A stretch of 64,000 nt of DNA, taken from positions 869,803-933,802 of the forward strand of contig ML996687.1 of assembly GCA_010356995.1 (NCBI GenBank). Direction: 5' to 3'. This document shows positions 9,103 through 27,662 of the stretch, in pieces (position 1 is the first letter of the stretch; each line of letters opens with the position of its first letter). Under the pieces are notes generated by a model. The model was given only the letters and a program-made list of their open reading frames with translations. It was not told the DNA's origin and searched no databases. Both the position numbers and the translations under genes were made by a program. Origin of the DNA: Trichodelitschia bisporula. Taxonomy: Eukaryota.

Positions 9103-9464
9103 TGCGGGCTGGTGGGGGGTCGGGAGATGGGAGAGCAGAGGAGAGGAAAATGATTTTCTGTCAATGAGGTGATTGGGTAGATGGTTAAGTAAATGTCGTG
9201 ACTCCTCAAAAGCTTGTGAATGTTCAGTCCTAAATCGCCCGAGTACGTCATTGGCTCCCGGCTTGTCGAAAGGTTTCCTGTCCCCACAGAAAATGGTAGT
9301 TCCAGTTGGCGTGATTTGCAACGATGGAAATGTTCATTCAAACAACGGTCAGCGAATAACTGTACAAGTCGCATATCAAAACCGTAGTTTATCGACAAAT
9401 TGGATACCGAAAGAAGTCCCCCCCCCACCTTCCTCCAGCCGTATCAACCTCTCACTCGGCCGCT

Positions 9465-10359
9465 ATGGACGAAGTGTTGCAATCTACGTTGCTGCAATCC
9501 ACGGTGCTGCAGTCGGAATGGTACCGCCATGTACCGCCAACGTGCAACAAGATGTCCATCTCAAACCTGAGGCTGAACGTGAAATGCGGACCGGACGCGT
9601 GGGGAAGAATGGGTCGGCTGCAGCCCGTTGTCATCTCCATCACCCTTCATTTTGGCCAACCCTTCATCTCGGCTGCAGATGGCGACGTGCTCGACAGCAG
9701 CACCGTCAACTACTCATCACTGACCAAGAATATCATTGTCGCCATTGAGCGTTTCGAGACCGTTGGTCACGATCTGGATCTTGCGCTGTTGGCAACCATT
9801 GTACAGACGGCCGCCCTCGAGACCAGCTCTCCACCGCCGTTTACCGCCACCGAAGTGGATATTCTATATCCAAAGGCCTCAAGAGCCGGCGAAGGTGTCG
9901 GCTACAGGGAGGGTCGCATCCTCGGCGAGGGTCATGGTCTGGCTTACTCAGTACTCTACTTCCAGGATATCCACGACCTTACAATTGTCGGCATAAACAA
10001 CCACGAGCAAAAGTTTGAGCAGCCGCTTGTCATCAACGTGTGGCTCGACGGTCTGATCTTGTCGAGTCCCATGAGTATCTCCGAGTTTGAGGAAGCCATT
10101 GTCTATGTATGTTTTGACCTTCTGTTGTCGACCTTCAGCCGCTCACTTCACCCAGGAGATCGAAAGTCACCTTGGAACCAAAACCTTGGAGAAACTAGCC
10201 ACACTCCTCTCCAAGAGACTGGCAGCGTCTTCGAAGGTACGCCAGCTTGGAGCTGCATCTAGCACTGCGATACTGGGCTTGAGAATCCGGAAGCCTTTGG
10301 CTGTTCCTCTGGCTGACGGGCCTGTGGTGGAGGTCTCTCACCCACTTTGTGAAGCCTAA
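9465..10359 (+). CDS. Stand-alone tandem dihydroneopterin aldolase (FolB-like) domain protein; intron 10107-10155
   Basis: GPDAWGR..QPV..STVNYS (domain 1) and IVGINNHEQKFEQPL..TLEKLA..IRKPLA (domain 2), as in the N-terminus of fungal Fol1. Confidence 0.75.
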
Positions 10360-10741
10360 AACTTCATATCACAGCATCATTTCCCCAGCCGTTCATGAAA
10401 ACAGCCTACGTCACGCTTTGGGCGGATTCCTCGCGCAGCGCAGGAGCTCTCGGAGTTGCATAGCGGTTACCTGAGACGATACATTAAATAGACTCAAGTA
10501 AACACACATGCGCCATACTCTACCTCAGCAACTCCATGCCATGCCCATTATTCGCGCTCGTAGCGACTGACAATCCGCGAGTGGATGCCAGAGAGTCGAG
10601 TCAGAGCATGCAACAATATGCATGTCCCGTGCCCACACGCTACATGAATATGGTACCTTCTGTGAGCTGTAGGGCGCTACCCCACGGTATCCGCTGTTCG
10701 ACATAGTAATGGTGAAACAAATGGCGAGGTTCGAAGTGCTC

Positions 10742-11383
10742 TCAGTCCTCGCCTTCACTCTCCTCCATGGCGCTGCCTTCATCATCCTCCATAGGGACAT
10801 CCTCGTCATCTTCCTCGTCGTCTCTCCTCCGCTTTGTACCGGCCTGAGATATAGGTACCTCTGTACGTCCCGCCGGCAAAGAGTTGAAGATAGACTGCTG
10901 TAGCTCGGTAGTCTGGACTGCAGCTGCAGCTGGGATCTTGAAGGTCCCGTCGAGCTTCGCAACAGTCTGAGACTTGCTGCGGGCGTATTGGACTTTCTGC
11001 AACAGTAACTCAGTAATTGGCAGCGTTTCGACGGACAAACTTACCATCTCCTTTCCAAAGAACTCAAATCCATTCAGGGCACGCATGGCCTGCGCCGCGC
11101 ACTGAACATCGCGGAATACTATGTGAGCCTGTCCACGCATCTTCATCGTTTTTAGGGCGATAATATCGAGGATAGGTCCGAACGTGCTGAAGAGCATATA
11201 GAGGTTGCGTCGCAGGTCTGGCTTCTTGAGACTGTCCGGCAGATTTTTGACGTAAAGACTGAATATAGGTGAGCATGCTACATAAAATCTAGAGGGCTGG
11301 AGGATTTCTTACGTCTGGTTCGGAGGCACCCCAAGGGAAGCTCCACGGGGAGGAGGGGCGCGTGTCGCCATGGCCGCGGACAT
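10742..11383 (-). CDS. U1A / U2B''-type snRNP RRM protein (2 introns)
   Basis: PPNQT|LYVKNL, LYMLFSTFGPILDIIALKTMKMRGQAHIVF, F(F)GKEM|KVQYARSKS. Confidence 0.92.
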
Positions 11384-11721
11384 CGCGTTTCGCAGGAGAA
11401 AGCAAATGTAAAGGCGACCTGAACGTGTAGATTGACGGCACGAGTAGGCCGAGGAGAGTATGAGGAGGTGGTGGCTTTGTTGTTGGCGGTGAAAACTGAT
11501 CGAGTTGATTTGACGTTGGCGATAGTGTAGTTGGCGCTGTATAGGTGGGAGGTCGAAAATGTCGCGGCGGCGGACAACACCAAGCCCTGCCCGCAACTCA
11601 CAAGTCGACGGACAACTCACGCTCGCTTTTATTACGCTCCGCACCCCCGCCCCCCACCACTCGCCCCGCGCTCAGGGCCAATTGATCTGCCAGCTGCTCC
11701 GAGATACCCTACAATGCTGCA

Positions 11722-13182
11722 ATGAGTTTAATCGTCGCACTATCACGCTCGTCGCGGCCGCGGGTGCTCCAGCAAGCCACCCTCCGACTCTCGGCTTCGT
11801 CAAGCACCCGCCATGCCTCCAGCTCGACGTCTTCCAACCCCCCGTCTAACCGCCTGCGCAACTTTACCTACGGATCATCATTGCTGGCCCTTGTCACATT
11901 CGGATACGTTTACTTCACCGACACTCGCGCTTCCGTCCACCGCTACGTCGTGCCACCCCTACTCCGCGCCCTCTACCCAGACGCCGAGGATGCCCACCAT
12001 GCGGGAACAGCAGCACTCAAGCAGCTCTATGCGTTTGGATGGCATCCGCGGGAGCGTGGTGGTCCGGACGCAGATGGCATGCTGAATGTGGAGGTGTTTG
12101 GCCACATGCTCAGCAACCCCATCGGAATCTCGGCCGGCTTGGATAAGAATGCTGATATCCCGGATCCTCTCTTTGCCCTGGGCCCTGGCATCGTCGAGGT
12201 TGGCGGCATCACAAACCTCCCACAGGACGGGAACCCTAAACCCCGCGTATTTCGCGTCACGTCTCAGAAGGCACTGATCAATCGTTATGGGCTCAATTCG
12301 GAGGGCGCCGACGTGGTTGCCATGCGCCTGCGCCAGCGCCTTCGGGAGTTTGCTTATAAACACGGCTATGGCATAGACGAAGAGGCGGAGCGCTTTGTCC
12401 TGGACGGCGAAGCTGGCGTGCCTCCCGGGAGCCTCATTCCCGGCCGTCTGTTAGCCGTTCAGATTGCAAAGAACAAGTTGACGCCAGACGATGACTTGGA
12501 TGCCGTGGTGCGCGACCACGTCGTGTGCGTTGAGAAGTTGGGCAGGTACGCCGACATTCTGGTGGTGAACGTCTCCAGTCCCAACACGCCCGGGCTCCGC
12601 TCTCTGCAGTCACGCGAGCCCCTGACAAAGATCCTCTCCGCCGTTGTCAACGCTGCGAATTCCGTCAACAGACAGAGAAAGCCCGTTGTCATGGTCAAAG
12701 TCAGCCCCGACGAAGACTCAGAGGAGCAAGTCCACGGCATTTGTGACGCCGTGTGGGAGTCGGGGGTTGCAGGTGTGATAGTGGGGAACACTACGATGAA
12801 GCGCCCGGACGCGCTACCGCGCGGCTTCACACTTCCTTCAACAGAGGTGCGGGTTTTGATGGAGCGCGGCGGATACAGCGGCCCGCAGCTGTTCGGGCAA
12901 ACAGTGGCTCTGGTGCGCAAATACAGGCAGACACTCGATCAAGGACCTCGGGTGGACGCTCCGACGGAGAGCCAAGGTGAAACAGCAAAGTCACCAGCGC
13001 GGGAAGAGTTCAAGCCGAAGGTCATCTTCGCTTCGGGGGGTATCACTAATGGCGAACAAGCACTCGCTGTGCTGAATGCAGGCGCCAGTGCTGCCATGTG
13101 CTACACGGCCACGGTGTACGGGGGCCCGGGAACGGTGGGGAGGATAAAGGGGGAGATGCGCGAGGCCATCAAAAGGTCATGA
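11722..13182 (+). CDS. URA9: Mitochondrial class 2 dihydroorotate dehydrogenase
   Basis: Presequence plus TM; DAEDAH, NPIGISAGLDK, GNPKPRVFR, INRYGLNS, VNVSSPNTPGLR, GGYSG. Confidence 0.96.
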   Translation: MSLIVALSRSSRPRVLQQATLRLSASSSTRHASSSTSSNPPSNRLRNFTYGSSLLALVTFGYVYFTDTRASVHRYVVPPLLRALYPDAEDAHHAGTAALKQLYAFGWHPRERGGPDADGMLNVEVFGHMLSNPIGISAGLDKNADIPDPLFALGPGIVEVGGITNLPQDGNPKPRVFRVTSQKALINRYGLNSEGADVVAMRLRQRLREFAYKHGYGIDEEAERFVLDGEAGVPPGSLIPGRLLAVQIAKNKLTPDDDLDAVVRDHVVCVEKLGRYADILVVNVSSPNTPGLRSLQSREPLTKILSAVVNAANSVNRQRKPVVMVKVSPDEDSEEQVHGICDAVWESGVAGVIVGNTTMKRPDALPRGFTLPSTEVRVLMERGGYSGPQLFGQTVALVRKYRQTLDQGPRVDAPTESQGETAKSPAREEFKPKVIFASGGITNGEQALAVLNAGASAAMCYTATVYGGPGTVGRIKGEMREAIKRS

Positions 13183-13395
13183 GCGAACGAGGTGCGCCTT
13201 AGGGTGGGCAGTGGCATGTCTAGACTGATGCCTGCTGACCATGGACTTCAACTGTACTATGCACAGACTTCGATTTCACCTCACGGCTCTCGAGACCGCA
13301 GGCCGTCCAATCATGTATATATGTTCGACACAGAAACACAGAAGGCGTTCATAGATCCTACGGAGAGGTGGAAACCCGACTGCACATCCATCCAG

Positions 13396-15287
13396 CTAGA
13401 GCTGCGCCAGAGCAGGCCTTTCGCTGTAGATCTTGAATGGAACACCTTCCAGATCTGCCTTGATCTGCAGTGCAAGGAAACGACCGAAAAATCTAGCTTG
13501 AGCAACATTACCACCCGTAAACCACACTCCCGGGTCTGCGTATCGTGTCAGCATTTGCTCCAAAATGGAAATCGGCACCCCACGCGCACAGGTTAAAACT
13601 TACGGCCGATGGGCTTCCAACCTCCTCTCATCTCACCCTCGCAGTCGACGCACCACCAATCCTCAAGCTTCTCATCAACCTCACGGTCAAAAAACTTTGA
13701 AGCTGAGAGTCGCATGTTACCCTCAAAGCCCGTGGCAAATACGACCACGTCAGCATCGAGGGTGCTTCCATCGTCAAACCGCAGGCCGCTTTCCGTGTAG
13801 CCCGTCAGTACCGCATCTGACTTCATCCGAATGAACCCGGCACTGATCTTCCGGCTCACACCCACGTCAAGATAGTGACCTCCGAAGCGCTCCAACAAGC
13901 AATGGTACAGGTCCATGTTTCGCTCGGCGCGGAAGCCCGCGCGCTCAAGAGAGTCGAAGCGCTCGCTGTCTTGGGAAGCGAAGTTGCTGATGGCACGCAT
14001 CGCCATTTGACGGGCGATTGCTGTCGGGGTTGTCATCATAATCCCATCCGATACCGCAACTGGTACTTCATCGTTGTAAATCGGGTCGTAGATCCGTTGA
14101 TAATACTCAACGGGCAGAACTGGAGTGCGTCCCCGTTGTACCATAGTTACTGAGCTGAGTCCAGCCCGAAGCATGTCGTTGGCGACGTCATGTCCCGAGT
14201 TTGCAGTACCGATGACCACCCCTTTCAGGCCGCTCCACTCCGTTGCGGACTTATATTGAGCGGAATGAAGCACCAACCCCGAGAATGATTCACGATCTTG
14301 CAATGTAGGCATTCGAGGCTCCTGGCCTCCACCACCGATCGCCAGGACAATGTGACGAGTTTTGATTGTCATCTCGAGGCCAAGGTGGGCGATCTTCAAT
14401 GTCCAAGTGCGTTCCTTTGCGTCCCACGTTGACTTCACCAGTGTGGTCGACAACCAGACATCGAGTCCGTACATCTTGACGAACTTCTGATACCCTTCTT
14501 TCAAGTCATTGATGCCGAGGTGGTAGGGGTACTCTGGACCCCACATGCGCGCAAAGGGCAGTTGACCATAGGCGCGAGACGTGTGGATGCGAACTGAGTC
14601 GTAACGGTCCGTCCAGTTCTGACCAATGTAGGCATTTTTCTCGAGAACAACGGCAGAAACCCCCAGCGCCTTGAGGTAGCCTGCCACGCAGAGTCCGGAC
14701 ATGCCTGCACCGACAACCACACAGTCGTGAACGTTTGAGCCGTTGGAATCTGAGAAGGGAGTCAAAGGCCTCTCAACTTGCCAGTCGACCACTGGTTCAC
14801 ACTCATCGACGTTGCCAAGGCCGTCAATGCCCTGAAGCATGGTAATCATCGTCCAGAGCTTCCATGTCTGCGAATCATGAACGATTCTAAGTATGCCACT
14901 GCACAATAATGGTGGTACGCCCGAGGTCTGGAAGGTTATTTTTGCTTCCACCCAGGAGGTTGGCGGACCAGGAGGTCGAACGATTTTAACGGAGCCAGGG
15001 GTGATTCGATGGTTGACGGGTTGATGGTCGCTCCAAAGTTTGCGCCAGGCTGGCACTACATTGGCCGCACCATGAAGAGTCCTCACAGTGCCCGTGAGAG
15101 CATAGAGGTCTCGCCATATGGTTTGGCTGGAGATTAGTGTATCGTCCAAGTCCTGCAGACGGGAGAGGCAATCTTCGGCAACAGGCAATGGATCAATGCC
15201 GTCTGGCACCGAGGTGGTTGGAAGGGCACCAGGCAACTTGGAGATAGGGAATGCCGGCGTGCGGGTTGGCTTCGTAGGTTTCACCAT
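13396..15287 (-). CDS. Flavin-containing monooxygenase (YUCCA/type II FMO-like); intron 13536-13603
   Basis: GAGMSG, WTDRYDS, FSGLVLHSAQY (FxGxxxHxxxY), GTANSGHD, DVVVFATGF; last exon HPGVWFTGG...ALQIKA. Confidence 0.92.
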
Positions 15288-17041
15288 TGTTGATAGATGT
15301 GAGGCTTGCGGTTTGCGGTGAACGTCGGTTGCTATCTATGTCTGGGTAATGGCAGCAAGGAGGTCAAAGAGAAATGATAGGGGCGATAGAGGGGAGAGGG
15401 TGGGGGGGATGAGGTTTAATGAATAATGAATAGGTCAGCTTCTGTTTTTAAGACGCAAGACTGGCTCTTAGTCACTAGGTCGTCGCTTCAGCTGTCGCTT
15501 CCACTATCCCTTCCTTACTTTAGCGATTAGGAAAGAACGACCGGCCAAGTCTTACATACCTTTACCCTCATCCCTACAATCCTCTCCCCCAATAGAAAGT
15601 GCAACTGAGTACTCAAGTTAAATCTTCCTGTGGGGTCACCGTGACAAACACGTTCTACCGTATTTTCCCGTCCATCATCTCTTCCATCATCTCTTCAATC
15701 ATCCCTTCCACCGTCCCTCCCTATATCCCTCCTTTCCACCCATCACGCCCCTCGGCTACCAACAAGTGGCCTGTTGCGAGAGGTTGGAGCCTTAATTGTC
15801 CTAGTGCTTCAAGCTGAATGCCCAGACATGACAGACAAGCATAGTGAAATGCGGAGGATTTGTCGCTGCAGGTGGGAATGGCAGACCGCCTTGCTGGAAA
15901 TGTGGAAGCTGTCAAATCATAGGGGTGAACGGATATACGTAGTAGAGATCAGAACGATGCTAGAGGAAGGTTAACATATGCTTTTCTCTGATGGGGGTAC
16001 GCCGGTGATCCCTATAGGCCGAGAACTAGCATGTGGCCTCCTGTACGTACCGTCCAGACCCAGCGCCATGTGGAACGTGGGTGACATTGGCGCACCCAAG
16101 GAAGCGGGGGCGGCATCCCGCTTTGCCACTCACACCTACCAACAGCACTCTTGGTCCCAAAGCGGCCAGTACTGAATGGGAAGAGTGGTTGTTGTCTGGC
16201 GTCCTCATTTGCCGGCTAGAGTCAGCCTGACCGCGCCTTTGTCGCCGATTGTCAGTAGATGTGTTCGGTGTAAGGCGGGAACCCGTCTTCAAATCTCACA
16301 TCCAGCGTTTAACAAGACCCCCATCTAACAATACAGGGTCAAGAAGCAAGTCACCATAAAGAGTAATCCCTCAGGCCCTCGGAACCTCAGCTTGGATGAC
16401 CCTCAAGGTAATGGGCACTTGGCAAGGCCCTCAACCTGACCTCGCTACCCTCAACACACTGACCACACCTTCGCAGCGCCACAGTCTGGTTGGTGGACGC
16501 AAGGAAAGGAATATATGCACCTTTCTCACTTGCCGCACGCCATTCAAGGCCTTCCACAGCTGATCCTCCAGTGACGGCCATCAATGCACCTTGATGTCCA
16601 ATTAGGGCGATGTGGAGGTGCATGGAGGATAAGGCTGAGGTGGAGCATGCGTTGGCTCAGCGGCTGACGGGACCTTGGGACGATCGAGTGGGTAGTCATC
16701 GAAGGAAGAGATATGAGCGAGGGGGTGCATGGCGGGGCGGGGCGTGGCGGGGCGGAGTGCGGGTCAAGGCTAATTTACGGCCACAGGTGGGAGGCTCAGT
16801 GGACCGTGATTTAAGCACTACGTTGTCGGTCCAGCTGGTACAGTATCGGGCGGCATTATGTATTCAAGCGACCTTTTCTTCTCTTTTCGGCGCTGGGAAA
16901 TCAGCATGCGGCGCATTTGGTGGGAACGGCGAAAGACGGTACGGGTAACTGAACGAGTACCGTACCGTATCCAAATCGGTTGGAAGAGGGCATTCGCATT
17001 GTAATTCGGTTGTACTCGACCCCTCCAGCAAATTCACGAGG

Positions 17042-17632
17042 GGGACTCATTAGGTGCAACACCCCAAAAATCTTAGAGGCACACCTTGAATACAAACCCC
17101 CCATACTTACGACGCCAAGACTTTGCCAAGACCCTGTCAAAAACTTGCGACAAAACTTCAAGTCGCGATGCACTCATGCGCCAGCATGATATAGAATTAA
17201 GGATGGAATTATTAGAGTTGCCTCATTGATGCGATTATTTTAGCACCACTCTCGTCGTCGTCGCGTTGCTATAAAAAGAGTTATTGCGATTTGAAGTTCT
17301 TGTGGCTGTTTGTGGCTGCGGGTGGCTGCGGGTGGCTGAATTGAGCGTGAGCCAAGACCACAGCAAAAACTCCACAAACTTCAACTCACGATAACTCATT
17401 CATCGACAACGTCATCGCAATGAGGATAATATCAAAATACTCGTCGCATCGAGGCGATTTTAATGAACTAAGTTTTAATTTTATATAATTTTATCGCATG
17501 CGTGCATCGCGACTTGAAGTTTTGCGGCAAGTGTTGGTGGGGTCTTGGCATTAAGTACATAAAGTAAATTATGGGGGGTGTGCCTCTAAGGTGTGCCTCT
17601 AAGATTTTTAGGGTATGCGGCTAATGAGTCCC
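17042..17632. mobile_element. Non-autonomous fold-back element (Mutator-like MITE), copy B
   Basis: Ends GGGACTCATTAG / CTAATGAGTCCC; perfect 9-bp TSD TTCACGAGG at 17033-17041 and 17633-17641; perfect 22-bp inverted match 17152-17173 vs 17502-17523; shares internal blocks with 7123-7770. Confidence 0.92.
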
Positions 17633-17979
17633 TTCACGAGGTTTACCTACGGTACCTTCATGTTTCTTTATCCCTGCCAACTTTCTTAGCAGGAGCTGAG
17701 CGGAGTGGTGTAGCGACATGTTGTGCGCCTCGTATTCTCAGTCACGTGCTACTAAGCTCCAAAGCTTGTACACGACTCCAGGACGAAGAGAAAGGGAGCG
17801 AGAACCCGAAGACATCATATCCTCAAAGGAGTTCAACTTTCTGTACTTCTAAATTTAGTCTAAGGTGCTTGGTACGTGCCCCGCCTCTTCTCAGAATTCT
17901 CTAGCCGTCTCACGCTCATAGACTAAGGTTATCTTACGGCACCTAAACCTACAACAAGAAGTGCCAGGTGCTCACTACT

Positions 17980-19434
17980 ATGTCGCTTCCAATTTCGCCC
18001 ATGGAAGCGATTGAAATTGTGCAAAAAGCAGTTGCCTTATACAAGAAGATTCAAGACGCTCCGGAGCAGGTGGCCAAGATCGGGAAGCGCATGGAGCGCT
18101 TGGAGCACTACCTGCGTGGGCTCCAGGAGCTGTTGAACGCAAAGAGCAGCAATACCTTGGCATCACTTCAGCCAGCGCAAACTCAGCAATTGAAATTGGT
18201 GATCCAGGATATCAAATCCGATTCCCAACAAATCTACGACATCCTCTACAAGTGGGACAACAATGTGGGCCCCTTTGGGCTTGAGCTTCGCTTCAAGACA
18301 ATGGCGCAGGCGCTCTTTGCGACTGGCAGCAGTCCGGATAAATTAAACGACCTGTGTGAAAGCATACAGCAGCATCAGTCTGAGCTTAGGGACTTTTTGC
18401 AGCTCCTTGGCTGGTTTGGCCTCAATCAGATTCTAGTTGCCAACCAGGCGTCATCTCTGGAGAAATCTTCCGCAGGAGCCTCCAAAAAGGCTTCCGAGAG
18501 CGCTGCTGAAAAGGATCCCGTGAAGGTCCCCGCACAGGCTTTCGCTAAGAATCCCGGCAAGGCTCCTGCAAAGGCTCCTGCAAAGACGTCTGCAAAGGCA
18601 CCTGTGCAGTCTGCCGCGAAACTCCCTGCAAAGCCCCCTGTACAGACTTCCGAAAAGACTCTCGAGAAGGCTAGCGAGAAGGCGGGCAAGAAAGATCCTG
18701 AGAAGGCGCTCGCGAAGACTTCCACAAAGGTTCCTGCAAAGACCTTTCCGCCGTCTCTGCTTGTGACGCCTTCGAATCCGATCGGACTGGACTACAGCAT
18801 CATCTTTGTCGACGCCCACAACCTGGGACGAAGCCGGGTGGCCGAGGCCCATGTCGAACTCCTCCGTGAGTGGACTTTGGGTGCAAGGGACAACTGGCGC
18901 ATTAGCACAGTGAGCTCAGCGGGGATCCGAGTCAGAACTGGTTGCGATTGCGCGGATATTATGCAACAACTCGAACCACCGGTGCCTTTGGTTGATGGCG
19001 GCAAGCGACCCAACTGGATGGCACTGGCTGCCCTGTTCGACAATAACCTTTTCAATTACCCCTTCAAGTACGAGATTCGAGATGATGCCCTTTCACGAGC
19101 TTCTAAAGGAATCACCACCACGCTCTTCAGTCGCTACGACTACATCCTTGTCTTCACGGGCCGTGATCAAGAAGATCTCCTCCGCCTGAAACAGGCCTTA
19201 GTCTCTAAAATGGGTGCCTCAGCAGCCCCTAAGGGAAAAGGTCGCGTTGCTCACCTCGGGTCATATCTTTCAGCAAAAGGCAAAAGCCCTTCTCCCATGA
19301 AGGAGGCCCAGAAGAATCCGGATGGCTCAGACAGCAGGCAAAACTGGAACAAAACTGTTGCCGAAATCAAAATTGCTGTCAAAGCTTTTCTAAGAAGCGA
19401 GATGGCTTGGTTACCGCCGTCCCCTCTAGTCTAA
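17980..19434 (+). CDS. SesA/HeLo-like N-terminal helical domain + K/A/P-rich linker + degenerate LMW-PTP/ArsC-fold domain
   Basis: Intronless 484-aa ORF; amphipathic N-terminus (AIEIVQKAVALYKKIQDAPEQV); IIFVDAHNLGRSRVAEA, VSSAG, YDYILVF match the LMW-PTP layout VLFVCxxNxCRSxxAEA / xSAG / FDYIL. Confidence 0.75.
   Translation: MSLPISPMEAIEIVQKAVALYKKIQDAPEQVAKIGKRMERLEHYLRGLQELLNAKSSNTLASLQPAQTQQLKLVIQDIKSDSQQIYDILYKWDNNVGPFGLELRFKTMAQALFATGSSPDKLNDLCESIQQHQSELRDFLQLLGWFGLNQILVANQASSLEKSSAGASKKASESAAEKDPVKVPAQAFAKNPGKAPAKAPAKTSAKAPVQSAAKLPAKPPVQTSEKTLEKASEKAGKKDPEKALAKTSTKVPAKTFPPSLLVTPSNPIGLDYSIIFVDAHNLGRSRVAEAHVELLREWTLGARDNWRISTVSSAGIRVRTGCDCADIMQQLEPPVPLVDGGKRPNWMALAALFDNNLFNYPFKYEIRDDALSRASKGITTTLFSRYDYILVFTGRDQEDLLRLKQALVSKMGASAAPKGKGRVAHLGSYLSAKGKSPSPMKEAQKNPDGSDSRQNWNKTVAEIKIAVKAFLRSEMAWLPPSPLV
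18460..18745 (+). repeat. Degenerate 12-bp coding minisatellite (K-x-P/S-A/E period)
   Basis: aaggctcctgca aaggctcctgca aagacgtctgca aaggcacctgtg...; Lys or Gln at roughly every 4th residue. Confidence 0.75.
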
Positions 19435-19515
19435 AAAATGCTGCCAGAGCTGCGCCACCATCGCCGCACCAGCGCCACCCGCATTCTATCACCGCTATCC
19501 GGTATCCTGACGTAT

Positions 19516-21327
19516 CTAGTATACATACCTGAATTGAGGATTTTCTCTGTCGGTCGCACCAGCCCACGCGTCCTGGTTGCTCATATCAACCTCACCCACG
19601 TCCTCGACGATACCATGGTTGCTCTGAACCCGGTCCCGCCTTCGATTTTCCCACAGGTAATACTGGAATAAGCACACAAAGACCACGGCGCAGCTTGCCT
19701 GCGTGGCCATGACGGTTAACGTGGCGGGCAAGTACCGCGGCGCGTATTTATCTTGGAAGGTTTGCGGGCCTAGGATTCCACCGATACCGTAGCATGCGCT
19801 CATAACGCCCGCTGTCAACGCACGCTTTGTATGGCCGGAAACGTTGGCCATGGCCCACTGTTGCATAATGGTGGAGATGCTGGTGATCGCTCCCACGAGG
19901 TAGATTCCCACCAACGAACCAGCGGCATTCGGTTGAGGAAGGAAGGAGAGCATCGCTGCGCCAGTGATACCGGCTATTTGGATTGGTCATCAGGTGTTAT
20001 ATGCGTCTATCTGACCGCGGGGCTTACGGATTGTGCATCCCACACCCCACGCCCAACGGTATGACGTCCGTCTGATGCCAAAGCCGACAATCATGTTGGA
20101 CAAGATGTTGACGATCCCGCTGGGCATGTTAAGTAGTGCTGACTGCCTGCTGGTGAAGCCGAGATTCTTGATCAGCGTCGTCGAGTAGGTGCCTGTCAAG
20201 CCAGACGTCATTGCCGCCTGCGCAATTAGCATATGGTTATAGTGGGATATCTGCTGACGTGTGTTTAGAGTCGCATACCAAGACCGCTGGCAGAGCCAAT
20301 CCATATATCTGAACATCCTTGGCAGCCTCCAACAGTTCCTACGCCCCATCAACTCATGCCAACCGCTGGTGGGCTCAACGTGGAGACTTACCCCTGGCCG
20401 CGGCTTGTGGTTCGAGATACCCGTCATATTCACGCTGACGTGCTTCAAAATTGCCACCTTCTCTTCTGTACTCAGCCATCGGGAGTTCATGGGAGTATCG
20501 GGAAGGTAGTAAAAGCACAAGCCAGCAACGAAAAGCGTGATGATGCCAAGTGCAATGAACATCAGCCGCCATCCGGCGAGTTTGCCTTGTTGCGGTACCT
20601 GGAATGCATACGACATCAGCCCTCCAAGGATTTGTCCGACTCCGGGAGCCGAGTGCCAGATGGCGAATCGAGGAGCTTGTTCTGACTTTCTGTACCACTG
20701 AGCTGTGATGAGCATGAGTGATGGGCCGATGGTCGCTTCGGTTATGGCGAGGAAGATTCGGGCAACGAAGATACCAGCAAAGTTTTGGACCGATGCGGTA
20801 CAAAGGGTCACCAATCCCCAGCCGATCATGCACGAGCACAGCCACTTTGAAGCGGGGAGGCGTTGCAACAGGTATGTGTTCGGTAGCTGCATCGCCAGAT
20901 GGGCAAATGCGTACCCCGAAGCAACGTTGGAAAAGTCGCCATGCTTGAAGTGGAGGTCCTTAGGTAGGCCCATGAGAGCTACGAAGGCTATCAGCCCTGT
21001 CCTCCACTACCGGAAAGCCAGCAGCTGCCAAGCTTACCTGTGTACTGTAAAGGGTCAGCGAAGCACAGAGTTATCAGGACGACGAACGTTGTAAATGGCT
21101 TTGTCCAAGAACTGCATGATAAAGCACAAGCACATCAACGGTACAAGACATCGATCGATTTTGTGTCTCAGTTTGACAATGTCGATATGAGAAATGTCGA
21201 CGTCTTTGTGGGCGTCGAGGAAGATGGCGGCACCGTCGAGGTCACTGGGGGCTGGCTCGGACTCGGACTCTGTCGACAGGTTCTCTTCGAAGATGGTGAC
21301 CGATTTCTCGTCTTTTTCGAGCGCCAT
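19516..21327 (-). CDS. MFS transporter, allantoate permease (Dal5/ACS) family; 5 introns including a 7-nt micro-exon
   Basis: KIDRCLVPLM, MQFLDK, ITAQWYRKSEQAPR, YLPDTPMNSRWLS, NVSGHTKR, TDRENPQFRY. Confidence 0.93.
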
Positions 21328-22790
21328 GACGAGACCTAGGGAAAAGATATGGTGCAGACAGCTGAAAAGGTAAGAGATGATTTGAATCGAAGAGGCCGTA
21401 GGAAGTCTCACTGCTTCAGCAAACTCCAGCGCCCATCGCGGGCTACATATTCTGACTACCCCACACTAGCTACGCTCGCTACGAGTACGCGTCCGCAATA
21501 TCTATCCACCCCTATCTGAGAGGATCAAGGCTCCAACCCGCAAGCCGACCAGTCCGCCACCCGTGACAGTCTGGGGTGGATTGCTGCAGGTACTGTAACG
21601 TCACTCATGGGCTCCAGCGAGCCTCGCCGGAAATGTCATTAAAATGGGATGGCTCGACCGCCCCTCGGCCCGGCCCAAACGGGTTTAAGGCCAATTCAGA
21701 CGACAGAAGGATAGGGGCGCAAACCGAATGGTCCCTGCGAGGGCGTGATTGTTTTTGGGCACATGGTCAATATCAGAAGAGATCTCTGAGACAAGACGCA
21801 AGGCAGCAACCGGAGAAGTAGAGCCGTGAGAGCCTTGCGAAAAGACCCCCAGGGACTTTGTGGCTCGGCGGTCGTCTGAAGCGATCTGACTTGGCATTCA
21901 GGCTAAACGCGGGAGCCGCGGGAGCATCTCTCGGCATGCATCGATCATCACTGGCTTGTCGCTCTCTCTCTTCTTCGCACCCTCTCCACACAAAGAAGCA
22001 TTTACCTGTACCACCATTTTTCCATCCGAGGGCGGGGGGGAGTGGCGGAGCGCTTTGCGATGTGTGTAGCCGGGTGTTCTCTTCGCGATGTTGGTCCCCC
22101 ATTCTCCATGGAACAAAAGAGTCGCGAAGCCTGAGAATGTGGAGTCCCGCATGGGTCAGCTTCTGCTCACGCGGAAAAGCTTGTTGGGTATTGTCATGGT
22201 CAGGTCACCCTGGGCGGAGTCGAAACAAGCTTCAAGCCACCGGCGACGCAACGGATGAGCGAAGGCCACCCTGTCAGATCATCAATCTTGATTGGAATGG
22301 CAATCTATGAGCCTTCCTCTACTCCTTACCGCATTTCCAGAAGACGCCAAGTACGGCAGCCGTTCCTTCGAGAACTGTACGTGCCAGAACAAAGAAAGAT
22401 CTTCACTGTACATTAATACATCAGTACATTACTGATCTTCAGTCTAGCTTGACCGGAGCCCTTTGTTTCCCATGTGAAGCGGTCGACCGAGGAAAGGCTT
22501 TGTACCTTTTGTACCCATGGATACTGTCAAAAGTCACTTCCATGTTGTCCTCAGCCGCCCCAAAGCTTCTATTGACACCCCAATCGGGAAGTCGCCATAC
22601 CGCATCGTCAAAGCAGCGCATTGTGTGTCAAACCACCACAAGTCTTGTATTGACGCCCAAACTAGGAAACACCATGATGCTATTAATCCGCGCTGCAAAT
22701 CCATCAGCTCAATCTGCCTCTCGGAATTATCCTTTTCCTCAACGGCTCATCGACCCACAAAACAACCATCACTATTCCAGCGATCCAACC

Positions 22791-23330
22791 ATGCGCTTCA
22801 AGACCCTCGCCTCAGCACTTCTCCTCGTCGCCATCGCCGTAGTCCTTCTCCGGGACAACCCGGCCGGCCAAAACGCCTCCGGCAACTATCCTGAGGGCTG
22901 TGACCCCTTCGGACCCAACCCCGCTCCAGCCGGCGCTCCGCAGCCCAAATTCTCGGGTAAGCGCACTCCGAAATCCGCACCGGCTCCAGCACCAGCTCCG
23001 GCTCCAGCCCCGGCTCCAGCCCCGGCTTCGAAGCCCACTCCCACTCCGGCCCCGAAGCCGCCTCCTGCGGCTCCGCCGCCTCTTCCTTCGGCGCTCAACT
23101 GGCAGTCTCCGCTCTTGTCGAGGATCTCCCAGATTGTGTCCGCCGCTTCGGCCCTTCCGAAGCCTCCTCCGCCGGACACACGCACGATTACAACGACGAG
23201 ACATGAGGCACCACCTGTCTCAATGATGCCTGGATGCTTACTCCGGAATGTTTCGCCTTGCACTGATGTTGGGAAGCCCTACAGCTCGTTCAAATTACCC
23301 GGACCCCCCAAAACCAAATCCGGTCACTAA
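22791..23330 (+). CDS. Putative small secreted/anchored Pro-Ala-rich orphan protein
   Basis: ATG in CAACCATG context; MRFKTLASALLLVAIAVVLL hydrophobic leader; (AP)n tract. Confidence 0.45.
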   Translation: MRFKTLASALLLVAIAVVLLRDNPAGQNASGNYPEGCDPFGPNPAPAGAPQPKFSGKRTPKSAPAPAPAPAPAPAPAPASKPTPTPAPKPPPAAPPPLPSALNWQSPLLSRISQIVSAASALPKPPPPDTRTITTTRHEAPPVSMMPGCLLRNVSPCTDVGKPYSSFKLPGPPKTKSGH

Positions 23331-23860
23331 TGTCCATCGGGTGCGGAGATACTGCTAAGGAGAGTCTTTTTATAATTTGGATATCAGTTTCCTGTATCGC
23401 CGGTTTATTGAGTCATCGCTTCTTGAGCTCTGTGTCAAGGGAGGATACCATCTCTCCCATGTCAAATTGCCACATACCCTGTGTTTGTCACGTGACTCGG
23501 TAAGCTTGATGCCTGACCCCTGCAATTCCAGCCCGGTTGCTGGACTTGCAGGGGTGAAGACTTGGCGCTGGCTGTGCGCTAGCACCCCTAGCTCCCCCAC
23601 ACTCCACATTCACGCGCGAAACCCTTACATAGTTCTTCAAGCTTTCAATGAATGTTTTTCCACAACCAATGCTGTGCAACCGATGATTTGTGCGCCCCTG
23701 ACACTCTGTTATGGCCCTCATGTGGCAGAAGGTGTATGTCATGCTGGACAAAGAAGACTCTAGGGATATCGGATTACGTGGCCATTGTTTACAAGTTGGC
23801 AGAAGTAGAGCCACTGCACCCTCCAAGTTTCTATCGGTAATCACACACTTCGGAGTTGCT

Positions 23861-25780
23861 TCACCTGGAGTTGGCAACTTTAGTACCGGGCTGTAGTGCC
23901 ACCCGCACCAAGTCATGGAAACGCGGAGTTCCGAGTCCAGTGACAGGATCCCATCCCTTGGTCGCGTTCCAACTCGCAAATGGTACGAAAGACGCCGAAA
24001 TATTTTCACTCAGGCCGTCGACCGTACCCAGGCACCCCGTAGATCCCCCGTGTACAATGTCGGTCAATGCCCGGAAACCCTCAAGATACAGCCAAGGGTT
24101 CATCATGCCTAGCGGCGCCTGTCCGGCTTCAATACGCGCCGCATTGATCAGTCCGACCAGTCCCGCAACGGTCGGTGCTGACGCGCTGGTTCCGCTGATG
24201 GATGTAACCGCAAGAGAGTCGACGACCCTGAATTGTTTACCTTGCGCCGAGATATCCGGAATGGCGCGGCCATACGGGTTGAAGAGACCCGCCCATTGAC
24301 TGCCGAGCTGAGCAAGATAATTTTCCACCGCGGTTTCCTGGTACCAGGGGCGCGGCCAACGTTCCGAAAACCCGCCAGAGGAAAAGAGGGCAGCGCGCTC
24401 TGGATTAATATTCTGTGTGCTGCCAACCGACGTTACAAATGGACAAGTCGCTGGGAACGTGGCCTGAAAACGCGTGGCATTCCTTCCGTCATTAGTCTGG
24501 CAGTTGGATCCAACACCATCGTCCCCGCTCGAGAATATGACTGTGACTCCGCGCGCTCCTAGCTGGCCAATCATGTTGCAGACGACGCGAGAGTAGTTCG
24601 CAGGGACCGTCTGCTCAGCTTCTCCATATGAAATTGTCAGTGTATGGGGAAGGGTCCCGTCAGCTTGGTTGAGCAGGTATGTAAAAAATTCGAGGTACGG
24701 CTCATTGGTGTTCATTGACTCTGGAGGATTGGATAAATCCGGAACTCGAGGGCCTTGCCCAGCAGTACTGTAGAAGTGGGCTCTCACGGGAAAGCCAAGA
24801 GCTGCGGCGTATTGCATATCAAGATTTGCTTCATAGCTTGGGTATGCGAAGCCTTGACCAAGCTGTCCACCTTGAGCAATGTCAGCCCGAAGTGCGAGGC
24901 AAAAACGGATGTTCTACCATTGACGGAACTCCAAGTGAAATTCGTCCCATTTGCCCAAGGGGCGAACTGTGAGGTGAAAGAAATGAAATCTTCGTACTGG
25001 GCGGACTCGTCCAAAAAACCCGCAACGCCCACGAAACCAGTGTCATTGGTACGAGGCAGATAGTCATCTATGCAGTACAGTGCCTTCAAGCAAGAAGGCG
25101 TCATGGTTCGGTTGCAAAAGGTGGGGTCGGTACTAGTGGTATCGGACTCGGCATCGGGCTTTCCGAGGCGAACCCGTTCCCGAATATGATTCCGCTGCGA
25201 AGTGAGTTGGCTAAAGCGGGTCGTAGGCTGGACCATATCGACATATCGGAAAAGATCCTGAGGAATCGAATAGTGGAGTGTTCGTATGGTGGTGACATCA
25301 GGACGAGAAGGTTGGGTGTAGATGCCAAACTCGGTGTCCATCATGGCTTCGGCTTGCGTTACAGTCGCTGTGAAGGTAATCCAGTTGACGTTTGTTACGA
25401 TGCTATCTTGATTGACGCCATATCTGACGAGCCACGAAAGGACGTCACCCACGGCACCTGGTGAGGGTTGCAACAAATCGTTCAGCTCGTCCCTTTTCAA
25501 GTGACGACCGTAGGTGGGATGGTTTGGAGTTGACATGTCATACAGGGTTTGTTCAAAGAATGCTTGATTCGGCTAGCATATGGTTATTCGCTAGACATCT
25601 CGGGGAAGTGCACAGAAAGCTTACCGACTTCAACGCAATGCGGAAGTTCAGACGTGTGTCCCGGTGAGGCCAGGCAGTTAGGTTCCATCCTGGTGGTGCA
25701 GCGGCGAGGGACTCAAAGCGTTCAAGGCTTTGGGCCCAGAGACCAGTGACGAAGAGCAACAATGCCCAACGCAGATACAT
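23861..25780 (-). CDS. Secreted tripeptidyl-peptidase / sedolisin (S53), 2 introns
   Basis: Signal peptide; prodomain STPNHPTYGRHL; EANLDMQY, SSGDDG, SGGFS, GTSASAP, GWDPVTGLGTP. Confidence 0.95.
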
Positions 25781-26691
25781 GATGCACCTTTGGACTTTGG
25801 AGAAGGGAATGAATGAATGAGTAAGCAAGAATATGGTCCGAAGGGAGGTCGGACTGGTTGGAATAGAAGGTATATGAAGGTGCTGATGCACAGGTTGAGG
25901 TTGGTAGAGATGCTTGGACGACGCAGCAACTGGTTCTTCTTCTTCCCAAGGGAAATGATTTCCAGGTAACTAAGAAATGAGGTGTGGAAAAGCTGCGAGG
26001 GTGTGTATATATTGATGCATGTTGATGGCATCCTGCCGCGCGCTGGGCTGACACTTGGGCCTTGTGGGCCACGGCAAGCAGCAAGAGCGGATGCGATGAC
26101 GGGACGCGATGACGGGATACGATGGATACTGTAGTTCCTGGTCTGACAAGAGCCAAGAGATTGTGGGGTTTTCTTTCCGAGATAAAAGCTCCTTCTCCAG
26201 ATCGAGTATAGCGACTCTTCGCCTCTTCCAAGTGTTCTTCCTCGCGAAGGACGATATAGTGAAGTCGCTATTGCTTTATCAAGCATCCCTAAGCTTCCTC
26301 CTCCTCCTCCTTCCCCACAACCTTCTTCCTCTCCTTTACTCCTTCCATCATCTCCACTGACCCATCTCCTCTATCCTTTTAACCTTATTCCCCTTCTTCC
26401 ACCTTCCGGTTGGTGTCCACGGTTGCATCTGTGGAACAACGCGGTCGCCATTCGGATATTAGTTAATCTTCCGTGCAGCTGCCGCCAATTGCCCTTGAGT
26501 TACGTTACCCCAAACCGTGGCCTAAATATGCTGTACACACGTCTGTTACATTGAGAAACGCTGCAGTATCCCGTGTGCATGTTGAGTTACGTGGCGTAAG
26601 CAAGCAAAGCGTCAACAAAGGGAAGGAGAAGGAGAGATGCACGTCTGATTTGACTTCAGGTGGTATGCTCTTGGCACTCAAAGGTGGCAAG

Positions 26692-26742
26692 CCACCCCGT
26701 GCCACCCGTGCCACCCGTGCCACCCACGCCACTCTTGGTGGC
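26692..26742. repeat. GCCACC/GGTGGC motif array (9-bp gccacccgt tandem) upstream of the IMPACT gene
   Basis: ggtggcaagccaccccgtgccacccgtgccacccgtgccacccacgccac...ggtggc. Confidence 0.7.
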
Positions 26743-26852
26743 CTCACCCCTTCACCACTTCCAGTTCAACTTCCAGTTCAGCTTTCAGTTCAAACAGTGC
26801 CGTACAGTACCAACTGTCCATTTTCTTTGGATTTTGCAGCATCGCCATCAAA

Positions 26853-27662
26853 ATGTCTGCCAAACGCCCTCTTCCAGATGCCTCCGACTCGCCTATATTT
26901 CGTTCCGAGCATATCGACGACCGGAAATCTACCTTCATCGCCCTCTTCAGTCCAACTCTTCGTGCCCCAGCACTCCAAGCTCTTCCTGAGCTCCGGTCCG
27001 CCTCGCACCGCATCGCCGCCTGGCGATTGCCTTCGTCGCAGAAGACCCTTACTCCACAATCCTCGACCCTCTATTCCCTTGGGCACGATGATGACGGCGA
27101 ACAATGGGCTGGCAGCAAACTAGAGAAGCTCCTCGTTGATCTAAAAGTCGAGGGCACCGTCGTTGTCGGTCGATGGTACGGAGGTATCAACTTGGGTCCC
27201 GTTCGCTTCACGCATATTGAAAATTGCGCCAGAGACGCTATTAAGCAGGCCGCTGGCTACCATACGCCTCCATTGACGAAATGCCCTAGGACCGGTGACG
27301 GGTCACCTCAACAGGGCGTCTTGGAGCAAGCCGCGAAAGCTGCTCTGGTGTCAGAGCTCCTCGAGCGCAATCGCAGCATATCTGTACTACGCGACCTCGT
27401 GAACCAAAAGCGGGCTGCTCAAAGCCTTCCGGTACGCCATTCTGCGCCTGCTGGCCCCAACGCTTCACTCGAAAGCCGCGAGTATTTTGAAGCTTTGCCG
27501 CTGGCGCGTTTACGAGCCCTAGAGCGTGCAAAGGACGCAACAACCGCATTCCTCCTGAAGGAGATTGACAAACTGGAGAAGTTGGATGCAAAGAATGTGA
27601 TACAAGATCCATCTGCGGAGCATCTGAAGAGTGACGAACAACCATCGCTCCCAGATCCGTAA
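26853..27662 (+). CDS. IMPACT/YigZ (UPF0029) family protein without RWD domain
   Basis: IDDRKSTFIA, ASHRIAAWR, HDDDGEQWAG, VVVGRWYGGINLGPVRFTHI. Confidence 0.9.
   Translation: MSAKRPLPDASDSPIFRSEHIDDRKSTFIALFSPTLRAPALQALPELRSASHRIAAWRLPSSQKTLTPQSSTLYSLGHDDDGEQWAGSKLEKLLVDLKVEGTVVVGRWYGGINLGPVRFTHIENCARDAIKQAAGYHTPPLTKCPRTGDGSPQQGVLEQAAKAALVSELLERNRSISVLRDLVNQKRAAQSLPVRHSAPAGPNASLESREYFEALPLARLRALERAKDATTAFLLKEIDKLEKLDAKNVIQDPSAEHLKSDEQPSLPDP

Follow-up and report, generated by a model that had tools for sequence, protein, structure and literature searches.

What might a protein do in which an all-helical N-terminal domain is joined, through a disordered tether, to a phosphatase fold with aspartate in the place of its catalytic cysteine? 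The question is raised by a gene at positions 17980..19434 (plus strand) of a 64,000-nucleotide stretch of Trichodelitschia bisporula DNA (GenBank assembly GCA_010356995.1, contig ML996687.1), which we call the window and to which all nucleotide positions refer; its product of 484 amino acids (aa) is called the window protein. The gene is a member of a widespread, uncharacterised protein family of the Pezizomycotina, and we are highly confident of its architecture: a helical bundle, a tether, and the fold of the low-molecular-weight protein tyrosine phosphatases (LMW-PTPs). The locus had been singled out earlier from its letters alone (below, the sequence-only reading).

The assignment of the C-terminal domain (aa 268-484; 18781..19431, plus strand) to the LMW-PTP fold is secure. 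In the full-length AlphaFold2 model, built on an alignment of 88 full-length members (A1, to which all column counts refer), the local confidence (pLDDT) is about 92-98 across residues 270-478, and the domain has what defines the fold, namely, a four-stranded parallel sheet with flanking helices and the P-loop between strand 1 and helix 1. VIA-align superposes model residues 271-476 on mouse Acp1 (2p4u_A) with Z 19.3 and a root-mean-square deviation (rmsd) of 2.1 A over 153/153 residues at 23% identity; in this ranking, the enzymes of mammals, yeast and Drosophila come before the bacterial Wzb, YwlE and MPtpA, and also before ArsC (Z ~14). Foldseek against the PDB gave 62 matches at E<=1e-3, and among the matches listed all are LMW-PTP-family phosphatases, the top one being 4z99 (E 9.1e-7, probability 1.00, TM-score 0.72-0.79 by target length). 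The profile of A1 finds human LMW-PTP (5kqg_A) among the PDB sequences at E 6.1e-8; the alignment places the family's 'IIFVDpyNegRSvvAEAy' on 'VLFVCLGNICRSPIAEAV' of the human protein, and 'eIldP' on 'IIEDPY'. The Pfam family LMWPc (PF01451) is found at E<=0.01 in 35/88 members, and several of these exceed its gathering score (for example, P0016 with 30.1 and P0023 with 28.8 bits). The LMW-PTP landmarks that the sequence-only reading had listed for this part of the protein are thereby borne out by the profile alignment, Foldseek and VIA-align.

The canonical residues of an LMW-PTP are the nucleophile Cys12, then Asn15, Arg18 and Ser19 of the P-loop, the general acid Asp129, and Tyr131/132. In the alignment to the human enzyme, the counterpart of C-X5-R-S is D278-A-H-N281-L-G-R284-S285 (18811..18834, plus strand), so that the signature C-X5-R-(S/T) with its nucleophilic cysteine is replaced here by D278-X5-R284-S285. 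The codon GAC at 18811..18813 (plus strand), which had been claimed to put Asp at the position of the nucleophilic Cys, does so as residue 278 in the profile alignment, and two substitutions separate it from a Cys codon. The near-invariant S313-A314-G315 (18916..18924, plus strand), aligned to 'SAATSG' of human LMW-PTP, is the counterpart of the SAG motif. Glu442-Ala443 (19303..19308, plus strand) lies at the general-acid Asp-Pro position, where the family 'dp' falls on 'EDPY', and the counterpart of DPYY reads E442-A443-Q444. The claim that the P-loop Asp comes without a DPY motif therefore stands as far as D-P-Y-Y is absent from the window protein; it needs correction in that Glu442 occupies the acid position and [D/E]-P is found in about half of the family.

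The aspartate belongs to the family rather than to this genome. The nucleophile column of A1 contains Asp in 86/88 members, with one Glu, one Ser and no Cys. In a second set of 143 representatives (P0036-P0178), 109 cover this column, the other 34 being fragments without the region, and here Asp is found in 101/109, Glu in 4, Gly in 2, Ser and Thr in 1 each, and Cys again in none. The conservation of D-x5-R, which had been proposed as a check of the sequence-only reading, is thus confirmed, and the homologues do not mostly keep Cys. (An earlier pattern match, which required Asn at +3, gave 114/178 proteins; its Gln, Arg and some other matches were spurious sites, as in P0024 and P0177.) The surrounding columns are retained as well: Asn281 in 78/88 members, Arg284 in 82/88 and Ser285 in 75/88; S313 in 87/88, A314 in 82/88 and G315 in 88/88. 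Column 442, the general-acid position, is less uniform (D 30, E 11, N 9 and A 8 of 88; acidic in 41/88), and is followed by P in 52/88 and A in 21/88, which makes the family consensus [D/E]-P. The columns of the two tyrosines of 'DPYY' contain Lys, Pro, Arg or a gap, with no aromatic among the six commonest residues, and the counterpart of the His in 'SHVARQ' varies (Arg 37, Ser 11, Gln 10, His 10). Judging by these columns, the phosphate cradle is tightly constrained and thiol chemistry is gone; half of the family does without the acid catalyst, and phosphotyrosine no longer seems a natural fit for the pocket.

The family was collected by a word-indexed search (34 homologues at E<=1e-3; best non-self E 1.5e-141) and by an exhaustive phmmer search of 1.84 billion cluster representatives, which gave 159 representatives at E<=1e-3, 111 at E<=1e-10 and 66 at E<=1e-30. 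The majority of members have a length of 360-520 aa and two stretches of similarity to the query, the N-domain and the C-domain, around a variable linker. All members with an organism named by the source are from the Pezizomycotina: Tothia, Venturia, Elsinoe, Vermiconidia, Saxophila, Diaporthe, Xylaria, Phialemonium, Pleurostoma, Truncatella, Pyricularia, Lasiosphaeris, Zalerion, Venustampulla, Pseudomassariella, Toensbergia, Xylographa, Coniocarpon and Bogoriella, which we take to represent the Dothideomycetes, Sordariomycetes, Leotiomycetes, Lecanoromycetes and Arthoniomycetes. The family is broad, and its conservation pattern is clean. Diaporthe amygdali falls in a 504-aa cluster separate from the 394-aa Diaporthe group; therefore, paralogues probably exist in Diaporthe. 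The NCBIfam scan gave noise only (best E 0.023), and no NACHT, NB-ARC or kinase partner was found among the 143 representatives.

Two side observations concern individual members. One of the 143 representatives also matches Evr1_Alr (E 3.1e-9), possibly as a fused gene model. In P0158, P0099, P0121, P0141, P0153, P0160, P0164, P0171 and P0175, a break or an insertion lies within the P-loop after 'N-E-[GS]'; the insertion of P0158 sits between N-E-G-N and V-R-S. The pattern points to an intron, conserved in the P0158 subclade, that interrupts the P-loop codons and is often read through or truncated by gene callers.

The N-terminal part (aa 1-167; 17980..18480, plus strand) is predicted to be a helical bundle with a long trailing helix, and as such the prediction is confident. 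A separate model of aa 1-160, based on a 101-sequence alignment, has pLDDT 86.4 and a predicted TM-score (pTM) of 0.81, with helices at 7-23, 29-53, 65-93, 106-115 and 118-158; the full-length model has them at 8-23, 29-53, 65-93, 106-115 and 118-167. We consider that the domain probably belongs to the SesA/HeLo-like class, on the basis of recurrent sub-threshold Pfam matches and one relative above the threshold. No Pfam family other than SesA (PF17107) recurs on the N-domain in the 88 members and the 143 representatives; SesA is found at E<=0.01 in 35/88 members and at E<=1e-3 in 18/143 representatives, while the Pfam scan gave no match to PF17111 in the window protein. The relative above the threshold is P0158, a distant full-length one: SesA scores 33.8 bits in it (gathering score 26.3), and MLKL_N is matched at E 4.9e-4. 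Its alignment to the family profile by hhalign (probability 99.7, E 3.8e-27, 357 columns), in which most of the score comes from the C-domain, is collinear over both domains and includes the conserved 'DAPxE' turn. UniRef names the Pyricularia grisea member 'Fungal N-terminal domain-containing protein' and the Zalerion maritima member 'Prion-inhibition and propagation HeLo domain-containing protein'. In a language-model search the nearest were Ascomycota clusters (scores 0.93-0.95) with PF17111 in 24-29% and SesA in 13-26% of their members. In the literature, the annotation sets of sesA and HeLo-like domains were merged in view of their strong overlap (PMC4986451), and HeLo-like domains are modelled as MLKL-like bundles (PMC9815663).

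Structural comparison of the N-domain is permissive without being discriminating. The best Foldseek TM-score, from a match above E 1e-3, belongs to the MLKL executioner domain (0.58/0.64, rmsd 3.4, 17% identity). With VIA-align, for which the tool note sets Z under ~13 as background for helical bundles, the values are 12.6 for IncA, 10.5-11.6 for NRG1.1 CC-R, 10.1-10.5 for MLKL and 10.3 for Rx-CC, then 9.1 for AtMLKL3, 8.1 for WeiTsing and 7.9 for MLA13; the MLKL N-terminal domain aligns at Z 10.5 with rmsd 2.9 over 118 residues and 17% identity. Seven of the best 50 VIA-align matches are four-helix-bundle or coiled-coil (CC) domains of MLKL, NRG1.1, Rx, AtMLKL3, WeiTsing and MLA13; the HET-s HeLo domain is absent from these 50, and Cbl TKB bundles and designed proteins score on a par with the MLKL and CC matches. 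The N-domain profile searched against the PDB reaches the MLA10 and ZAR1 CC domains at E 0.5-0.6, and MLKL is not among the matches listed. The SesA/HeLo-like N-terminus of the sequence-only reading, assigned there by pattern, is thus upheld, if less firmly than the C-terminal assignment, by SesA in 35/88 members, by P0158 and by the UniRef names; the structural matches to MLKL and CC-R fall within the background. The Foldseek check that it had proposed for both parts came out positive for the C-domain and empty at E<=1e-3 for the N-domain. The N-domain was also sought in longer proteins, for instance those of the size of NOD-like receptors (NLRs): there was no match at E<=1e-3 among 246 candidates in the word-based search and none among 7997 candidates with a 15-sequence N-domain alignment, and since these searches also missed known members longer than 416 aa, their evidence is weak.

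Between the two domains lies a disordered linker rich in Ala, Lys and Pro (aa 168-267; 18481..18780, plus strand). Residues 181-267 have pLDDT below 50 and are predicted to be disordered, and the blocks over 171-270 average 41-51. The three-part layout proposed earlier is therefore reproduced by the AlphaFold2 model, with helices up to 167, the low-confidence stretch over 181-267 and the C-domain at 270-478. The linker DNA contains a 12-bp tandem repeat, AAGGCTCCTGCA, in 3.8 copies (18559..18604, plus strand), which encodes KAPA units, and a second 12-bp tandem repeat in 2.3 copies (18665..18692, plus strand); the units encoded by both are of the KAPA type. Across the family the linker, with Pro, Ala, Lys and Ser as its abundant residues, varies from 2 to 135 aa (median 30; 121 in the window protein). 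In many relatives a Ser-Pro stretch, often 'PSPSPSP..R(R/K)D[YF]', directly precedes the phosphatase-like domain; at least two [ST]P are found in the 30 residues before strand 1 in 39/88 members, and at least three in 24/88. Such motifs could be proline-directed phosphorylation sites beside a phosphate-binding pocket. For the window protein itself we rejected a Ser-Pro phospho-tether: the 30 residues before its strand 1 contain one [ST]P only. On the opposite strand, a 133-aa open reading frame (ORF) at 18451-18852 (minus strand) faces the repetitive linker; it is rich in Arg, Leu and Cys, mirrors the low-complexity repeats, and is taken for a by-product of repeat composition.

A sister clade combines the same N-domain and an Asp-type P-loop ('ILFVD..NG.RS..AQAYLE') with a C-terminal KH domain. 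KH_1 is found at E<=0.01 in 5/20 distant relatives scanned, three of them above the gathering score (clear in P0154, P0143 and P0159; weak in P0151 and P0166), and at E<=1e-3 in 3/143 representatives; the organisms named in the KH_1-positive clusters are Toensbergia and Xylographa. No KH_1 was found at E<=0.01 in Pseudomassariella (P0163) or Venustampulla (P0155), and the tail of P0163 is KH-like by eye.

The gene as described is real, and it differs from the public model. The ORF list gives a frame 17968..19434 (plus strand) that opens at GTG, with its first ATG at 17980, from which 484 codons and a stop are read in a single exon. Since an in-frame TAA lies at 17944-17946, an upstream extension of the ORF is impossible and the ATG at 17980 is the earliest possible Met; the resulting N-terminus, MSLPISPMEA, agrees with those of the homologues. 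Contigs of two public runs, X1 and X2, from one sample of one study, were placed on 16500-22500 of the window. These runs were flagged 'RNA?' as a guess, and no run is on record as RNA for this locus. We read the contigs as RNA because the GT..AG segments 17872-17921, 20185-20268, 21368-21417 and 22377-22447 are missing from them and the intergenic 17103-17705 is uncovered. X1 record 2 covers 17766-17870 and then joins 17921, skipping 50 (cut +1), which defines a 5' untranslated (5'UTR) exon 1 at 17766..17871, its start set by the limit of the RNA-like contig, and a 50-nt 5'UTR intron at 17872..17921 of the GT..AG type with the donor GTACGT (both on the plus strand). From 17921 (X1) or 17927 (X2), the contigs reach 20184 without any joint, including the entire ORF. 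Read as RNA, they mean that the locus is transcribed and that a single exon, preceded by the 50-nt 5'UTR intron, contains the whole coding sequence; the claim of an intronless ORF thus holds for the coding sequence, and the transcript does have an intron.

The public record for this locus, a hypothetical protein of 297 aa from Trichodelitschia bisporula (P0002, NCBI), is identical to the ORF through L295 and then ends with PQ and a stop ('...ELLPQ'), just past the P-loop, so that most of the phosphatase-like domain is lost. Its break coincides with an in-frame GTGAGT (18866..18871, plus strand) that resembles a splice donor and was likely mistaken for one by a gene predictor. The model looks truncated because RNA-like contigs that are spliced elsewhere cross the ORF without a splice; we rejected it as the main product, considering that contigs from both runs pass 18866 unspliced with introns removed at other places. 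It is probably a mis-prediction, and the contigs are compatible with a rare spliced form. Beyond 18866 there are 189 further open codons with 35-58% identity to the homologues and pLDDT of ~97. A chance ORF was likewise rejected in view of homologues down to E 1e-141 and 159 representatives at E<=1e-3, and so was a private or degenerate Cys-to-Asp allele, with Asp family-wide and Cys in 0/88 and 0/109. Taken together, the explanations of this kind (a private degenerate allele, a pseudogene, a chance ORF, or the 297-aa model as the true product), for which the public record and the GTGAGT may be cited, are very improbable: the homologous and confidently modelled codons past the break, the unspliced contigs of two runs, the family-wide Asp and its two-substitution distance from a Cys codon are all against them. 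The annotation looks wrong, and a correction is called for.

The same contigs offer observations downstream of the gene. On the plus strand, they run ~1.5 kb beyond the stop (19435-20980), over the minus-strand ORFs 19516-21006 of a major facilitator superfamily (MFS) transporter, and the plus-strand GT..AG segment 20185-20268, missing from the contigs, is inside the minus-strand MFS ORF. The extension represents a long 3'UTR that is spliced, or else a transcript antisense to the transporter gene; a two-gene contig does not prove a single transcript. At 20980-21088, the contigs of both runs have a 107-base skip with AC..AC ends, 5 extra letters (GTGTA) and 30 letters on the shorter side, which is probably an assembly artefact at a contig end. 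Among the neighbours, eight ORF translations of at least 150 codons were scanned within 9360-27659 of the window. Six of the eight were matched: a FolB-like protein, dihydroorotate dehydrogenase (DHODH), an FMO-like flavoprotein, the MFS transporter, whose gene is convergent on the minus strand, a subtilase and UPF0029; the other two were unmatched. No NLR gene was found among the ORFs scanned, and no amyloid motif beside the gene turned up in general scans, no dedicated amyloid model being used.

The overall interpretation of the sequence-only reading, a dead phosphatase gating a helical effector or an enzyme with Asp-based chemistry, is partly supported. Both domain assignments survive: neither a complete lack of structural similarity to the proposed folds nor a set of cysteine-keeping homologues was found. 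As regards function, we presume, tentatively, that the likeliest reading is a P-loop module that senses a ligand and controls the N-terminal bundle, by analogy with MLKL. The protein is built like MLKL with a different regulatory domain: a probable SesA/HeLo-like four-helix bundle with its long helix, a basic and proline-rich tether that is disordered and varies in length, and a complete LMW-PTP fold. In this fold, the cradle (Asn281, Arg284, Ser285 and SAG) is kept, the nucleophilic Cys is replaced by a near-invariant Asp, and the aromatic clamp for phosphotyrosine is lost. The C-domain is most likely no longer a cysteine phosphatase and probably works as a module that binds a phosphate ester or another anion in its P-loop, perhaps with slow Asp-assisted turnover; its ligand state would control the oligomerisation or the membrane action of the N-terminal bundle, much as the MLKL pseudokinase does with its four-helix bundle.

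It is tempting to go further and to propose a fungal counterpart of MLKL outside the NLR system, in which the Asp P-loop reads a phosphorylated ligand, or Asp278 itself is phosphorylated as in a receiver, and a HeLo-like, membrane-permeabilising bundle is released; we regard this stronger version as quite doubtful. Candidate ligands would be a phosphoprotein, the Ser-Pro-rich tether of the family, an inositol phosphate, a nucleotide or, in the KH clade, an RNA end. If true, this would be a phosphate-gated executioner of cell death or stress made from a phosphatase fold.

Several results weigh against the ligand-sensing reading. In the window protein itself, both Pfam matches fall short of the gathering score: SesA has 12.2 bits (E 0.2) against 26.3, and LMWPc 18.5 bits (E 0.0025) against 23.2. 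Foldseek gave no match to the N-domain at E<=1e-3; the structural matches of this domain (Z 10-12.6) are within the helical-bundle background, with the unrelated IncA as the best; and its profile finds only coiled-coil noise in the PDB (spike heptad repeats, E 0.002). The full-length model has pTM 0.54 and no defined contact between the N- and C-domains. The neighbours are metabolic, with no NLR, and the gene is present in RNA-like contigs of one sample; both facts fit a housekeeping role as well as an immune one. Finally, an invariant Asp with an intact cradle would also be expected of an active enzyme, and the general-acid position is acidic in 41/88 members.

This last point leads to the possibility of altered but active catalysis by the C-domain, which would make the protein a phosphohydrolase, a phosphotransferase or a phospho-Asp switch and leave to the N-domain only a part in targeting or assembly. 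Asp278 could then be a nucleophile acting through an acyl-phosphate, as in haloacid dehalogenase (HAD) phosphatases and receiver domains, a general base for water, or a metal ligand. A near-invariant Asp with Arg284, Ser285, Asn281 and SAG kept is a pattern typical of a working rather than a decaying site; the general-acid position, with Asp or Glu in 41/88 members and Pro after it in 52/88, also speaks for an enzyme. A Cys-to-Asp mutant of PTP1B reportedly retains low activity. The Asp nucleophiles of known phosphatases are Mg2+-dependent and belong to a different fold, which counts against the proposal, and no metal-binding motif was identified here. More than half of the members lack the general acid, the aromatic residues that clamp the substrate are gone, and the literature searches found no LMW-PTP-fold enzyme with an Asp nucleophile. 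In favour of the proposal, Drosophila LMW-PTPs formerly called pseudophosphatases turned out to be active (PMC7772506). We consider an active enzyme somewhat unlikely. A housekeeping regulator, possibly linked to RNA, in which the N-domain is a mere oligomerisation or scaffold bundle and the P-loop binds a nucleotide or the terminal phosphate of RNA, is unlikely. It is favoured by the KH RNA-binding domain in the sister clade with the same N-domain and Asp P-loop, the named members of which are lichen-forming Lecanoromycetes; by the basic Lys/Ala/Pro-rich linker, with the tail of ribosomal protein L4 (E 0.031) as its best PDB sequence match; by the conservation of the family across classes; by the metabolic neighbours of the gene, with no NLR among the ORFs scanned; by the lack of any NACHT or kinase partner in the 143 representatives; and by the unspecific structural matches of the N-domain. 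Against it, SesA is the sole Pfam family recurring on the N-domain, members bear UniRef names of the HeLo or fungal N-terminal domain kind, a KH domain is absent from the window protein, and a low-complexity basic linker is weak evidence of RNA binding.

Literature searches over full texts, with few subscription journals covered and the supplements of PMC9815663 outside their scope, led to no account of LMW-PTP-fold proteins that form a clade with Asp in the nucleophile's place and to none of a fusion between HeLo-like and LMW-PTP domains. A paper on the fungal pseudophosphatome (PMC13216928) has, in the parts consulted, one passage on Ltp1 and nothing on this family, and the word 'phosphatase' is absent from the parts consulted of the review PMC12881547. 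The family would be the first natural LMW-PTP-fold clade found with a conserved Asp at the nucleophile position, and it raises the question of whether an Asp in a PTP P-loop is a ligand sensor, an acyl-phosphate nucleophile or a phospho-acceptor. In animals, necroptosis relies on a four-helix-bundle executioner combined with a pseudoenzyme, and the bundle is considered to have relatives in the HeLo-like domains of fungi. If a P-loop module does control the bundle here, the family would be a second, independent solution, with the controlling domain derived from a phosphatase and not from a kinase. Plant pathogens (Venturia, Diaporthe, Pyricularia, Elsinoe) and lichen fungi are among the organisms with members, so that the reach would be wide if the family does act in cell death or stress.

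It remains to compare the family with known systems. With the eukaryotic LMW-PTPs (ACP1, yeast Ltp1, Drosophila Primo-1/DARP) it has the whole fold in common (153/153 residues, 21-23% identity), including the P-loop after strand 1 with Asn, Arg and Ser, the SAG motif, the 'YDYI' strand and the 'LGxY' segment. It differs from them in that the nucleophile position is never Cys and nearly always Asp, the second Cys of the P-loop is changed to Gly or Ala, the general-acid Asp is kept in only a part of the family (Glu442 here), and the Tyr-Tyr clamp is absent; in addition, the domain is longer, ~210 residues with two insertions, and is fused to a helical N-domain. With the SesA/HeLo-like domains (HELL; PF17107, PF17111) of fungal NLRs and of HELLP-type executioners it shares an all-helical bundle at the extreme N-terminus, whereas the family lacks NACHT and NB-ARC, and no NLR neighbour or amyloid motif was found, the latter with no dedicated search.

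The design is that of MLKL and the plant MLKLs: a four-helix bundle comes first, a long helix makes the connection, and the C-terminal domain descends from a phospho-transfer enzyme and lacks a canonical catalytic residue. The N-terminal domain of MLKL belongs to the best structural matches, none of which exceeds it in identity (Z 10.1-10.5, 16-17%), within the helical-bundle background. On the other hand, the regulatory domain of the family has a phosphatase and not a kinase fold, with no Pkinase match in the window protein, the 88 members or the 143 representatives, and the connector includes a long disordered tether. The protein may therefore be said to work like MLKL at most by analogy. 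The family also resembles STYX, the MTMR pseudophosphatases and the D2 domains of receptor PTPs in the loss of the nucleophilic Cys with the fold retained. These proteins have the folds of dual-specificity phosphatases or classical PTPs. Their Cys is replaced by Gly, Ser or other residues, often with further erosion (see also PMC7772506). In the present family, by contrast, the replacement is one specific acidic residue, strongly conserved, with the rest of the cradle intact.

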